From positions 18,600,001 through 18,664,000 of the forward strand of contig OZ024756.1 in the NCBI GenBank assembly GCA_964016885.1: DNA of 64,000 nucleotides, written 5' to 3'. Position numbers and translations under genes: made by a program. Positions 366 to 60,196 of the stretch are shown in pieces (position 1 is the stretch's first letter; every line of letters starts with the position of its first letter). Under the pieces are notes generated by a model that did not search any database, was not told the DNA's origin, and saw only the letters and a program-made list of their open reading frames with translations. Source of the DNA: Eledone cirrhosa (taxonomy: Eukaryota).

Positions 366-584
366 ATCCGATATATATGGGTATATATGTAAAATATCGA
401 CCGCCTTTTCAAGCCTGTAGTCGGAACTGCTTGACGTCGCGGTCGGGATTATATATATATATATATTCTTTTTTTATCTAAAGACATTTTTTCCAATTCC
501 AACCCGCCCGTCCCCTCAATCTATCTTATTTCTCATATATATATATGTAAAATACCCATTTGTGCGCACACACGCGCACGCACA

Positions 585-764
585 CACACGCACACACACA
601 CACACACACACACACACACACACACACACACACACACACACACACACACACACACACACACACACACACACACACACACACACACACACACACACACACA
701 CACACACACACACACACACACACACACACACACACACACACACACACACACACACACACACACA
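585..764. repeat. (CA)n microsatellite
   Basis: Pure CA run of about 180 bp. Confidence 0.98.
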
Positions 765-1052
765 CATATAATTCACAAGAATCAAAGCTATGTTCAAAAC
801 ATTTATTCACTTACAATTGTTTTATCCAAACCTAGGCTTGGGGTCTTCGGAGCATTTTTCAATGTTTGTACACATAATTGACCTCCTTTCCAACGCAAGA
901 GACATACAGATACATATATATATATATTGATGTACAGTGGAATGACATATATTATACTATATTATTTCTGTATAGCAATTCAAATTCAAAATCAAAATCA
1001 AAATTAAATTTAAAACAAAATTAAAATACATTCGGCAGTTAACACAGATAAT

Positions 1053-2235
1053 AATAAACCTAGATCAATATTAAACTCTATCTCTAAGGGAATATCCAAT
1101 AGAATCTCTAATCTATCTTATGACGAAAACATATTTAGCAAAAACTCACAATATTATAATCAGGCATTAGCTAGATCAGGCCATAATAATGAGATCGAGT
1201 TCCTACCTACAAAAACACATAGTTACAACATTATTTCGCACAATATGTCCATGAGGAAAAATAGTAATAAGAATAATAACCACACACACACTAGTACGAA
1301 GGGTGGAAACAAACGTAACCCACACCAGGGAGGTCACCAAAATACTATAAACGGAAGCATCTCACCAGACATAAAAAACAAAAATAGAAGAAGAAATAAT
1401 ACTTTTTTCAACCCCCCTTTCAATCTAAACGTCTCTACCAACCTACCTAAGGCTTTCTTCTCATTCCTGGATAAAAACTTCCCATCTGGCCACAAGTACC
1501 ATAGCCTTATAAACAAAAACACCATTAAAATCTCCTACTCTACCACGCCTAACATAGCATACCACATAGCTAGTAGCAATAAAAGAAAAATTAATACTTG
1601 CTTCCAACAAACTAAAACACGGCAGGGGGTAAACCTTCAAAACAACGTTATATCTGCAAACCCTGATATCAATAGTAATAATAGTAATAGCACTTGTGAG
1701 ATCAATAACGCTGGGAGCGACAACCCCCATAGCCATAATGCAATACCTAGCAACCAGACTTCTACACAACATAATAACCGGCAGGTTAACATCCAAAATA
1801 ATTGTAACTGTAGATCTAATAGAACCTGCCCTTTAGATAAAAACTGCTTAATCAAGGACATCATATACTCATGCACCGTCATAACTAGCAGCTCTTCTGA
1901 AACCTATATAGGCTCTACTTCGAACTGCTTCAAAACCAGATACAATTCACACCTCCATTCTTTCAAAAAACACACTTCACTATCTAGCTACATACACTAT
2001 CTAAAAACTAGAAATAGATCTTAAATAGATTCTAGAAATAGATTCTACACTTAAATGGGAAGTGATAGGTAAGGCATCGTACAAACCACCTAATAAATTC
2101 TGTAACCTCTGTCTACTAGAGACCCATACTATAATCTTCTCAAACCATAACCTCCTTAATAAAAAATCGGAAGTGTTTGCGTCGTGCCAGCACCGCTTCC
2201 GGCACTCCTTCCAAAACTTTAAACCCAATATATAA
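1053..2235 (+). pseudogene. PLE ORF remnant: RT thumb, linker and GIY-YIG endonuclease (one frameshift near 2020-2040)
   Basis: The frame is open from about 1053: KPRSILNSISKGISNRISNLS...YNQALARSGH; FFNPPFNLNVSTN; LDKNFP; NKNTIKISYS; CNCR...CPLDKNC; IIY...YIGST...FKTRYNSH. In a shifted frame it continues LKWEVIG...CNLCLLE...LLNKKSEVFASCQH to the stop at 2233-2235. Confidence 0.88.
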
Positions 2236-2643
2236 CAATGTCAGACTTGAACCTATCACCACTTCTAACACCACACCTCAAAGGCACACCTTACATCAAA
2301 ACTCCACACTCTCTGATCCACCCTATCTCGACACAAATCATTCCATCTATCTATAACTTTATACCCTAGAAATATCCCCATAAACACCTACTTTTAGTAT
2401 AATTACTTTCAATTACATATAATTATATAATGATACAATACAGTCTATATAAGCTTTAAATACCAGATTCGACAATGAATTATATATGCAATTGTATTTA
2501 TATGTACGGAGTGATAACATTGGATATATATAAGATTAATTAATTAACATAAGAGATCTGTCTAAACTATACATTGAGTGCAATGAATTATCTATGAATA
2601 GTATGTGAGTTATATATGCAAGTATAACTTGATGGATAAATTA

Positions 2644-2735
2644 ATTGTTTCTATTTTAGGCACAAGGCCAGCAATTACCCAGTACATTACTGGTACTTTA
2701 TTTTATCGACCCCGTAAGGATGAAAGGCAAAGTTA
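2644..2735 (-). mobile_element. 3' fragment of tRNA-derived SINE inserted in the PLE 3' region
   Basis: Matches the SINE tail ttgtttcta..ttaggcacaaggccagcaattacccagtacattactggtactttattttatcgaccccgtaaggatgaaaggcaaag seen many times in the window. Confidence 0.85.
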
Positions 2736-57044: not shown

Positions 57045-57400
57045 CCTACTACTACTATATCTTCACTTTCTACCTCCTCCCCCTCCTCCTACTACTACTA
57101 TATCTTCACTTTCTACCTCCTCCCCTACTACTACTACTACTACTACTACTACTACTACTACTACTACTACTATATTACTACTTTTTCTTCACTTTCTAAC
57201 TTCTCCTACTCCTCCTCCTACTACTACATCTTCACTTTCTACCTCCTCCTCCTCCGACTACTACTACTACTACTACTACTACTACTACTACTACTACTAC
57301 TACTACTACTATATCTTCACTTTCTACCTTCTCCTATTCCTACTACTACTACTACTATATCTTCACTTTCTAGCTCCTCCCCCTCCTCCTCCTACTCCTC
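57045..57400. repeat. (CTA)n/(CCT)n compound repeat with a recurring atcttcactttcta unit
   Basis: Direct reading. Confidence 0.85.
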
Positions 57401-57728
57401 TTTCTCCCACCTCGTCCCACACATCACATCTCTCCCTCTCATCCTCTTCCTTTTTTTCCTTTCGCCCTCCTCCTCCACACTCTTCATTCATCTTTTCTTC
57501 ATCGTCCTTCCATCTTTCCCTTCTTTCCCTTCTTTCTTTCTTTCGCTGTCTCTCTCTTCTCTCTCTTTCTTCTCTCTCTCTCCCTCCATCCTTTGTGCTT
57601 CAATCACTCCCCCTCTCCGGCCTGTCTGTCTGTCTGTATGTATGTCTGTCTAACTCTCTCTCTACCTCATCCTCTACCTAACACTCTTCAGTTTCTCATA
57701 TACAATAACCTCAGCCATATTACCACCA

Positions 57729-58420
57729 TGTCACCCTGTCACCCTCTCACCTCAACCACGTTACCCTGTCACCCTGTCACCCTCTCACCTCAACCACGTT
57801 ACCCTGTCACCCTGTCACCCTCTCACCTCAACCACGTTACCCTGTCACCCTGTCACCCTCTCACCTCAACCACGTTACCCTGTCACCCTGTCACCCTCTC
57901 ACCTCAACCACGTTACCCTGTCACCCTCTCACCTCAACCACGTTACCCTGTCACCCTGTCACCCTCTCACCTCAACCACGTTACCCTGTCACCCTGTCAC
58001 CCTCTCACCTCAACCACGTTACCCTGTCACCCTGTCAACCTGTCACCTCAACCACGTTACCCTGTCACCCTGTCACCCTCTCACCTCAACCACGTTACCC
58101 TGTCACCCTGTCACCCTGTCACCTCAACCACGTTACCCTGTCACCCTGTCACCCTCTCACCTCAACCACGTTACCCTGTCACCCTGTCACCCTCTCACCT
58201 CAACCACGTTACCCTGTCACCCTGTCACCCTCTCACCTCAACCACGTTACCCTGTCACCCTGTCAACCTGTCACCTCAACCACGTTACCCTGTCACCCTG
58301 TCACCCTCTCACCTCAACCACGTTACCCTGTCACCCTGTCACCCTGTCACCTCAACCACGTTACCCTGTCCCCCTGTCACCCTCTCACCTCAACCACGTT
58401 ATCCTGTCACCCTACCGCAA
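57729..58420 (+). repeat. 38-bp minisatellite built from TCACCCTG subunits, degenerating to about 58665
   Basis: TCACCTCAACCACGTTACCCTGTCACCCTGTCACCCTC tandem units; explains ORF 57593-58579. Confidence 0.92.
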
Positions 58421-59525
58421 TATCACCTTGTCAACCTGTCACAATGTCACCCTGTCAACCTTGACACCCTGTTACTCTACCACTTCAACCACGTTACCGC
58501 CATGTCACCCTGTCACCCTAACACCCTGTCACATCAGCCATATTACCGCCATGTCACCCTCTCACTTCAACCACGTTAACGTCATGTCATCCTGTCAACT
58601 GTCAATTTGACAAACTGTCACCCTGTCACCTCAACTACGTTACCGCCATGTCGTCCTGTCACCCTGCTCAGCACTTACTCACATATGAGCATTCACACAT
58701 ACACAGGCACGCACACACACACACACACACACACACACACACACACACACACACACACACACACACACAAGCTCTTACATGCACACATACAAACACATAA
58801 GCACGGACCTACACACACACATAAGCACAGACCTACACACACATATAAGCACATACCTACACACACATACACACACATAAGCACATACCTACACTCGCAT
58901 ACACACATATGCATTCATACAGAAGCACCCACATACACACACATAAACACATGCTTACACACACACACACACACATACACCCACACACATAAACATGCTT
59001 ACATACATACACACATACACCCACACACACACACATAAGCACATACCTTAACTCGCGGACACACACATACATACAAGAGCACCTACATACACACACATAA
59101 GCACATACCTACATTCACATACGTACGCATACACACAAGAGCACACACACACACACACATACATACAAGAGTACACACACACACACACATATATATATAC
59201 ACGTCATCTGTTTTTAGCCTGATGGGTTTTTATTTAATAAGATATACAGCTGTTAAGTGTTAATAACTCCCCCCCCCTCCACTCCACCGCTACCCTCTCT
59301 ACCACTAACCCGCCATCACATACATAATCATACACACTTGTATATACACACAGAGACATACATATACACACATACATACACACGTACGCATATACATATA
59401 TATACACATGCATACATATATATAGACGTACATGCATACATACACATACATATACACACATACATATATATATATATGTAAGTTTGGGAATAACCAAAGA
59501 GTGCTTAGAAATACATTGTTTTATT

Positions 59526-59572
59526 AGCTAACAGTGTTTCATCCATACCCTATGGCAGGAATCATCAGAGCT
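59526..59572 (-). ncRNA. Type I hammerhead ribozyme in an about 275-bp insert between (TA)n tracts
   Basis: Minus strand: agct CTGATGA ttcctg ccata-ggg-tatgg at GAAAC act GTT agct. Confidence 0.7.
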
Positions 59573-60196
59573 TATAAACAAAATTATATCAAAGGTTGCA
59601 GGCTCCATCAAGCTCAGTCACCAGAACAAGGATAAAGGACAAGTAGAGGGGTCCCAAGGCCATGCTATATAGAAAACACACAATACATGACGCACATAAT
59701 GTCATAACACGTCATAAAATGTGTGTGCACATTAATACACTTGTCAACGAATCTATATATATGTATACAGCTCACACCTATGCAGGTTTAGCTGGCCTCC
59801 TCCGAGGTATATCGCATTGGAGGTGTCTTGGGTAATTTAATGATAGGGACCCCAGTCCTATCATCTCATTTCTACAGCTGAGTATACTGGACCAACGTGA
59901 AATAAAGTGTCTTGCTCAAGGAAACAACACATCATCCGGTCCGCGAATTGAACTCACAACCTTTCGATTGCAAGCCCAATGCTTTAACCACTAAGCCATG
60001 CGCCTTTATATATATATATCAGGTATACATACATACATACATACATACATACATACATACATACACACACACACACACACACACACACACACACACACAC
60101 ACACACACATACATATAAAAGCTGTATTAATCATTATTCCACGTTCCGATGTTCGGGCGTTAGTGAAATTTGAAGCCATGACGGCGAGTGTTTTTC

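Follow-up and report, generated by a model that had tools for sequence, protein, structure and literature searches.

Foldback inserts in (TA)n repeats of Eledone cirrhosa as probable truncated 3' ends of Hydra-clade Penelope-like elements

Among Penelope-like elements (PLEs), the Hydra clade is marked by RWK, DKT and CxCx5C motifs, bears hammerhead ribozymes and is almost always inserted into (TA)n (Craig et al. 2021, PMC8557442; this and the other papers are cited from the parts of their text that were available). Listed in the supplement to that paper are hammerheads with the pattern ctgatgaT...Tgaa and a Hydra family of Octopus bimaculoides. How PLEs make a tail and inverted copies, and which RNA feature is recognized by the reverse transcriptase (RT), was there an open question, and the tail and inversion mechanism and RNA recognition are addressed by hypothesis only in Frangieh et al. 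(2024, PMC11167929). In vitro experiments of the latter study established that both target strands are nicked and extended by the protein of a Poseidon PLE, that RT starts at two internal sites bounding the tail, and that priming requires the RNA 3' of the start sites, not hammerhead cleavage. A self-complementary stem III of the hammerhead has been read as a dimer signature (Cervera and de la Pena, PMC4209133). Here these systems are compared with a stretch of 64,000 nucleotides (nt) from Eledone cirrhosa (contig OZ024756.1, 18,600,001 to 18,664,000; "the window", to which all coordinates refer), in which one coding PLE is accompanied by about 20 short, often mirror-image inserts in TA repeats. 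The inserts are probably severely 5'-truncated 3' ends of Hydra PLEs, and their layout of inverted arm, arm and one-sided tail would stem from reverse transcription primed at two sites set by hairpins.

The window is rich in microsatellites (29% masked), and 25 insert spans, weak candidates counted in, make up 4,597 base pairs (bp) or 7.2% of it. A dozen or more families of mini-elements are represented, mostly by copies under 450 bp without open reading frames (ORFs). For comparison, a set of 79 loci with Hydra-type ORFs from other animals (here given L numbers) was taken from metagenome contigs. The window elements have in common with Hydra PLEs a type I hammerhead on the sense strand of the pseudo-long terminal repeat (pLTR), insertion into (TA)n, and an inverted copy with a one-sided tail; they probably belong, as a new set of members, to this already known clade.

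Hammerheads and TA flanks of the inserts

A type I hammerhead descriptor found 10 strict CUGANGA matches in the window, against 0.09 per shuffle (maximum 2) in 100 shuffles with microsatellites kept in place, and 5 core-variant matches against 0.25 per shuffle (maximum 3). All 15 fall, at 12 loci, in TA-flanked inserts or in the coding element. The CTGANGA cores with pairing stems noticed in a preliminary description of the window are thus far above shuffled expectation. That description had also proposed running type I hammerhead models, and a covariance model trained solely on the 13 hammerheads with an 8-nt stem III in Hydra PLEs of other animals gave 16 window matches (6 at E<1e-3), including 13 of the 15 descriptor motifs. 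One additional hammerhead, at 37208 on the minus strand, was called by eye. Rfam gave no match in the window at gathering thresholds, and there was no hammerhead among the best 150 by E-value of 533 Rfam rows, which were microsatellite-driven.

The 79 comparison loci yielded 46 hammerheads, 29 of them non-redundant; those of L060 and L065 appear not to be genuine and were excluded from alignments. A U.U at positions 10.1/11.1 occurs in 13 of the 29 and in 5 of 15 folded window motifs. Odd cores of the window recur in other Hydra loci (CUGAAUGA in L067, CCGAAGA in L063), GUU sites are common to both sets, and nearly all window hammerheads have a self-complementary stem III. The alignment of 13 hammerheads used for the model shows strong covariation, with 97.4% of cells paired and two-sided changes at 8 of 12 pairs (0 of 500 shuffles).

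Placement of the inserts in (TA)n, as first described, also stood when set against random sites. A TA run lies within 250 nt downstream of the core in 15 of 15 matches and at 12 of 12 loci, compared with 21.5% of random unmasked positions (p ~1e-8 for the 12 loci). Of 38 insert termini set by hand, 29 abut a TA run versus 1.8% at random, in a partly circular test that counts as a miss one terminus (family C, right) placed 10 nt short. As a control, among 18 ends of short interspersed elements (SINEs) a single one abuts a TA run.

All parts of the mini-elements map onto the 3' end of full-length Hydra PLEs. Given the hammerhead signatures in common with Hydra loci, together with the tail motif described below, the mini-elements are, as judged from their sequences, most likely extremely truncated Hydra PLE 3' ends and not retrozymes. 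The earlier proposal of ORF-less products of several PLE families targeting (TA)n therefore holds, with Hydra as the clade indicated by both motifs; its wording "extremely truncated" is apt, whereas "retrozyme-like" is not, there being no tandem monomers and no shared centres.

It is very improbable that the inserts represent non-LTR retrozymes, with expression as circular RNAs that cleave themselves. They do have type I hammerheads, and retrozymes derive from PLE pLTRs (bioRxiv 10.64898/2026.07.22.740005), but tandem units define retrozymes (PMC7229834), and the window contains no tandem monomers and no head-to-tail hammerhead arrays, its hammerheads being arranged head to head or singly. Moreover, of nine foldbacks that had been named as ribozyme-bearing, five possess a whole ribozyme and four do not: those at 6942 and 53498 begin within the hammerhead and lack CUGANGA, that at 56403 turns inside the hammerhead core and has no stem I, and in that at 21046 no hammerhead was found. 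Folding also gave a predicted stem I probability of 0.00 in 8 of 8 foldback hammerheads, and of 0.78-0.90 in 3 of 7 single-copy hammerheads. Because the sense direction points away from the foldback centre, a read-through transcript would make the antisense arm first, and pairing with that arm would leave stem I unformed; foldback ribozymes are thus predicted to be masked by their own antisense arm. With four of nine foldbacks lacking a whole ribozyme and stem I predicted unformed in all eight foldback hammerheads, the dense layer of self-cleaving RNA initially envisaged finds no support, and the folding model argues for hammerhead-rich foldbacks as sources of double-stranded RNA rather than as active ribozymes.

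Twin hairpins and the formation of foldbacks

In Hydra PLEs the stretch from the hammerhead to the start codon contains a tandem pair of bulged hairpins with the motif RCUC-stem-2-nt bulge-GAGY-RCU, seen in the comparison loci downstream of the hammerhead as GCUC-stem-loop-stem-2-nt bulge-GAGC-ACU. The pattern occurs 69 times in sense versus 6 times in antisense in 217,156 bases of Hydra loci, and 0-2 times in ten shuffles. Counted over 37 non-redundant copies by a structure-anchored script (MAFFT left variable-loop hairpins unaligned) and without regard to relatedness, the three pairs above the bulge, which played no part in hairpin selection, are paired in 37 of 37, 30 of 36 and 27 of 32 cases, pair 1 largely distinguishing hairpin 1 from hairpin 2. 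Watson-Crick counts at these pairs are 35, 27 and 25 versus 19.1, 12.3 and 8.5 in shuffles; slid controls are likewise far below the observed pairing, and all four Watson-Crick types are found at pairs 2 and 3. Among 15 loci having hammerhead and ORF start in cis (L065 left out), 12 show two hairpins, 2 a near-match for the second and 1 a single hairpin, with a spacing from hairpin 1 to hairpin 2 of 59-74 nt (17 loci). Cross-BLAST of the other animals' loci, with rows of mere between-family divergence set aside, gave 15 distinct genomic 3' ends, 12 of which are offset from a hairpin start by -4 to +5 nt, six at hairpin 1 and six at hairpin 2.

The same pattern has 10 matches in the window versus 0.56 per shuffle. 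Seven are in insert tails, where the hairpins mostly have a compensated lower stem, ACUC/GAGU, and longer-loop hairpins beyond the pattern matches were found at 3907 and 56487. In 7 of 7 window foldbacks having a hairpin, the tail-less arm terminates 0-6 nt before it. The preliminary description had seen the arrangement of arms and tail, but missed the twin hairpins that would account for it. The other three matches (2961, 7330 and 45312) are outside elements; those at 2961 (-) and 7330 (+) may be remnants of further PLE ends.

The hairpins have no match in Rfam. By eye, they are visible in the consensus sequences of Hydra-1_Ajap, Hydra-2_Ajap and Hydra-2_Amil, and as a variant in Hydra-1_Crog, all from Craig et al. 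(PMC8557442) and originating from sea cucumber, coral and copepod; the Hydra-1_Ajap consensus starts two bases before the first hairpin. Neither "hairpin" nor "stem-loop" is used in the available text of that paper. A literature search, with older Penelope papers, Repbase reports and figures beyond its scope, found no description of such hairpins or of octopus-type foldbacks, and a duplicated hairpin registered to both PLE ends appears to be undescribed. Three Hydra copies of the comparison set (L035, ~974-3378; L065, ~2486-5052; and L053) have as 5' border a TA run directly before a hairpin, and are unit-length copies that start and end at one kind of site.

Self-BLAST and split alignment confirmed all nine named foldbacks as inverted arm, arm and one-sided tail. 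In self-comparison the arms are 57-166 bp long and 89-100% identical, spacers are mostly 0-13 nt, every tail is 41-150 nt, and the centres vary among copies of one family. For such copies we infer binding, priming and joining steps in which the PLE RT-GIY-YIG protein, probably as a dimer, would bind hairpins 1 and 2 on a more-than-unit RNA and nick both strands of a (TA)n tract. Complementary DNA (cDNA) primed just 5' of hairpin 2 would form the long end, which carries hairpin 1 as the tail, and cDNA primed just 5' of hairpin 1 would form the short arm. Both cDNAs would stop early and be joined head to head by microhomology, the hammerhead being a passenger of the pLTR end. Two primings imply that each foldback has one short and one long end, as is seen here and, in swapped roles, in L055.

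The copy at 16966, with zero overlap between its inverted arm and tail, and the asymmetric foldback at 17507, whose inverted arm exceeds the sense arm in length, both point to two primings and not to snap-back, in which a single truncated cDNA would double back and serve as template for its own copying. Snap-back could yield neither of these forms and leaves the constant stop of the second arm before hairpin 1 unexplained, and it is an improbable origin, even with several foldbacks that are symmetric, with spacers of 0-13 nt and palindromic centres, and with the short 5' inversion of the copy at 35857 in its favour. The arguments balance evenly on whether in Hydra PLEs throughout animal phyla two hairpins 60-75 nt apart dock a dimeric RT-endonuclease and set starts 1-5 nt upstream, with family A (below) as a minimal parasite; by such docking, hairpin spacing would equal tail length, and use of both sites at once would give inverted foldbacks.

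In the main rival reading the hairpins act on DNA, GIY-YIG recognizing them in cDNA or as an inverted repeat and, in resolving the intermediate, cutting a few bases upstream, so that the ends would be sites of cleavage and not of priming. Endonuclease resolution has been proposed for the tail (Craig 2021, PMC8557442), the D. virilis tail is required for endonuclease recognition (as reported in PMC11167929), and L035 and L065, starting at a TA run directly before a hairpin, indicate that the same site makes 5' borders too. This is nonetheless unlikely, since upper-stem covariation with a constant 2-nt bulge requires a single strand, G.U is more frequent than A.C on the sense strand, and two internal RT starts bounding the tail have been shown in vitro for a PLE (PMC11167929). 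It is scarcely credible that the inserts are miniature inverted-repeat transposable elements (MITEs) or assembly artefacts at microsatellites. Such an origin would suit the inverted arms at termini within TA and the three arm pairs of 100% identity, but the tails are one-sided, hammerheads are present, ends are in register with the PLE motif, centres are unshared, and the families are found in independent reads of other individuals; symmetric terminal inverted repeats common to all copies, with a target-site duplication, are not seen in the inserts.

Several points weigh against truncated Hydra ends primed at hairpins. The mini-elements are placed in the clade by common sequence motifs, and no full-length copy of any of their families was seen, a genome-wide search not being part of the analysis. 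The full hairpin is absent in families C, M and H, family M is also without a hammerhead, and the short arm of family K terminates 60 nt away from the hairpin. The 12 fitting 3' ends of other animals stem from about 8 families, and three ends (L023, L062/L066, L063) are off the hairpin register. The Hydra-1_Obim consensus, by eye, is without the canonical hairpin pair. The hairpins may act as RNA or as single-stranded DNA (G.U outnumbers A.C by 9 to 4 in pairs 1-4). Finally, four arms of family A have 5' ends no more than about 4 nt apart and the visible stem II of the family is unable to pair, both of which fit a non-autonomous element with a fixed 5' end.

Family A, other inserts and the coding element

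The six copies of family A (390, 6942, 16966, 17391, 36128 and 53498) start inside the ribozyme, and four of its short ends have an identical end point, at which TAT is homologous to the target. They comprise an old, diverged family-A-like foldback at 392..447 (+) with the hammerhead 3' half only; a variant foldback at 6942..7128 (+) with arms of 57 bp (89%, spacer 0), the hammerhead 3' half, a hairpin at 7061 and a tail; the inverted short-ended arm joined without overlap to a tail at 16966..17083 (+); single copies at 17391..17447 (+, short-ended) and 36128..36267 (+, long-ended, hairpin 36195); and a foldback at 53494..53711 (+) with arms of 67 bp (90%, spacer 7), a hairpin at 53639 and a tail. 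Reduced-representation (RAD) reads from two other individuals were mapped to 53480-55750, giving depths that are relative only and not copy numbers. Family A is far more abundant in them than families D or F, and its tail (11.7k) is deeper than both arms together (7.2k), as expected under extreme truncation. Relative to the SINE, its contig depth is ~0.14 in organism A but <0.001 in organism B, a hint of a burst in one lineage, and its read abundance would probably let de novo repeat tools catch it. Pile-ups of read ends at 53568, 53970, 54519 and 54861 fall on AATT and probably mark restriction sites, an opposite-strand joint at 53521/53627 in the reads is ambiguous, and a family A 20-mer had no match in viral contigs.

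For family A at least, true non-autonomy is possible, though doubtful: such an element would measure ~140 nt, have a fixed start at its 5' side, have lost the hammerhead core but kept the hairpin, and be mobilised by Hydra proteins. Besides the 5' ends and stem II mentioned above, its depth would suit this (about a tenth of the SINE's and 25-fold that of family D, far lower in the second organism), and non-autonomous PLEs are known in Chlamys (Craig 2021, PMC8557442). The copies at 390, 6942 and 16966 start further 3', however, other families start at varied distances, and the 5' ends would cluster in the same way if RT were strongly arrested at the ribozyme. Furthermore, the long end requires hairpin 2, which is absent from inserted copies, so that these could not regenerate that end. 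In family A (36128-36180, 6999-7040, 412-447) the strand that follows GAAA has two possible partners, one downstream, giving stem III, and one upstream, giving a 5-bp hairpin that closes GAA. Three variants preserve both pairings despite sequence changes, which suggests a switch or an unusual stem II.

The other inserts, with the exception of family M probably truncated Hydra ends as well, are grouped here by family. Family B forms a foldback at 17103..17337 (+) with arms of 79 bp (95%, spacer 13), hammerheads with the CUGAAUGA core at 17171(-) and 17203(+), a hairpin at 17278 and a tail. The asymmetric foldback of family C, at 17507..17779 (+), has a hammerhead at 17607(-) in its longer inverted arm and a tail without the full hairpin. 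Family D is seen as a foldback at 55313..55741 (+) with arms of 166 bp (95%, spacer 11), hammerheads at 55423(-) and 55545(+), a hairpin at 55655 and a tail, and as a related copy at 35857..36084 (+) with a hammerhead at 35979 and the short 5' inversion at 35857-35925. In the family D tail, just before (TA)n, an ATG-led stretch at 55715-55745 resembles a Hydra N-terminus given one extra base; if it is one, the family D long end would extend past the usual site. The family E foldback at 35406..35666 (-) has arms from 35470 (94 bp, 100%, spacer 9), hammerheads at 35554(-) and 35582(+), a hairpin at 35466(-) and a tail at 35406-35469. Family F is a long-ended single copy at 55134..55301 (-) with a hammerhead at 55276 and a hairpin at 55207. 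Family G occurs as a single copy at 55785..55880 (-), with a CAGAAGA-core hammerhead at 55868, and as a foldback at 56404..56626 (-) centred in the hammerhead core, with arms from 56490 (68 bp, 100%, spacer 1), a long-loop hairpin at 56487(-) and a tail to 56404. A family H copy at 56048..56290 (+) has a minimal hammerhead at 56170, and a fragment of the same family lies at 470-536.

The single copy of family J, at 19078..19362 (-), has a minimal hammerhead at 19239 and a hairpin-like variant downstream. The family K foldback at 17795..18202 (-) has arms from 17945 (100 bp, 94%, spacer 58) and a 150-nt tail to 17795; its CAGAAGA-core hammerhead is at 17989(-), the other arm terminating in stem III. 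Family M is a perfect foldback with a tail at 21046..21310 (+), with arms of 112 bp (100%, spacer 0) and neither hammerhead nor full hairpin. The family N copy at 36890..37281 (-), which contains the hammerhead at 37208, is interrupted by a later SINE at 36929-37136 flanked by duplicated target. A family P single copy lies at 59480..59600 (-), with a hammerhead at 59568 and a hairpin remnant. Two TA-flanked hammerhead-like pieces, 51872-51970 (+) and 35692-35856 (-), did not pass the descriptor, owing to a disrupted stem II and to a weak stem I (model E 2.3), respectively. Palindromes at 7726-7783, 19365-19476, 19532-19583 and 22582-22866 have neither hammerhead nor tail motif and were left out of the counts; the last has no TA flank and may be a MITE candidate.

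At 766-4046 lies the coding element, a PLE of the Hydra clade that is truncated on its 5' side. Its C-terminal ORF at 1014..2024 (+), frameshifted afterwards, comprises the RT thumb, a CxCx5C linker (CNCRSNRTC) and then GIY-YIG (IIY...TYIG), a C-terminal endonuclease that is seen in this copy only. Full-length homologs of the ORF carry RWK and DKT, a divergent RT core and CxCx5C, the RWK/DKT region being truncated away in the window. The layout proposed for it in the preliminary description, the same as that of the foldbacks, is confirmed: a short-ended inverted arm at 766..1052 (-) is 97% identical to 3616-3900, in the pLTR end at 3616..4046 (+), and the tail is one-sided (3901-4046, ending in (TA)n). 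As the inverted arm adjoins the truncated ORF, arm and ORF represent one insertion. The hammerhead (CCGAAGA core) is at 3816 and hairpin 1 at 3907-3940; the distance from ORF to hammerhead, 1.6 kb, is unusually long, with a later SINE piece inside. Pfam did not recognize the ORF fragment, which by eye differs from Hydra-1_Obim, and a second homolog search gave no named closer relative.

Other features and comparison with described systems

Elsewhere in the window, an apparently intact long interspersed element (LINE) of L1/Tx1 type lies at 43362-48727 (-), with a 642-aa ORF1 and a 1146-aa ORF2 containing endonuclease, RT and zinc finger, and a broken LINE fragment at ~40970-42900 (-), which we take to be of RTE type, has an endonuclease domain match. 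A very abundant SINE-like family has ~20 copies between 2638 and 54128, several in head-to-tail and inverted clusters, with arrays at 29391-31285, 33400-33813 and 34686-35102. A 78-bp minisatellite occupies 24578-28438 (~50 copies, 96% identity), and three related repeats of 300-450 bp lie at 48945-49241, 50315-50689 and 50832-51281.

A 25-nt covarying hairpin that occurs twice, fixed a few bases from both ends, makes the mechanism of tail and inversion testable by moving or breaking it. The hairpin is also a short diagnostic for annotating ORF-less PLE debris, which is about 7% of the window, and could be a portable template signal for PLE-based insertion. If its proposed role is true, a telomerase-related retroelement would for the first time have a defined template-recognition element.

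The Hydra PLEs of Craig et al. (2021, PMC8557442) share with the window elements a C-terminal GIY-YIG, the CxCx5C linker, type I hammerheads, (TA)n targets, a frequent U.U at the base of stem II, and an inverted 5'-truncated copy with a one-sided tail. The window tails are longer (41-150 versus 30-40 nt), its copies are mostly short and ORF-less, and the twin hairpins are present in the published consensus sequences yet unmentioned in the available text. The minimal PLE hammerheads of Cervera and de la Pena (2014, PMC4209133) are likewise type I with a short palindromic stem III, and mostly solitary or in opposite-strand pairs 100-700 bp apart; most window motifs have a stem III of 3-5 bp, and no link to a downstream hairpin is described in what is available of that paper. 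Non-LTR retrozymes (PMC7229834; bioRxiv 10.64898/2026.07.22.740005) are similarly ORF-less and PLE-derived with type I hammerheads, but form head-to-tail tandems yielding circular RNAs (PMC7229834), whereas the window inserts are solitary or head to head.

Naiad PLEs also have (TA)n targets, inverted copies and tails, and are present in Octopus. They differ in having an N-terminal endonuclease and no canonical hammerhead, whereas the window has a C-terminal endonuclease and hammerheads; a Naiad PLE could nevertheless be the source of the insert at 21046.

The closest mechanistic parallel to the proposed double priming is PAc, a Poseidon-clade PLE of Anolis (PMC11167929), whose tail is delimited by two internal RT starts located 3' of the hammerhead; extension takes place on both target strands, and the RNA 3' of the starts is required.

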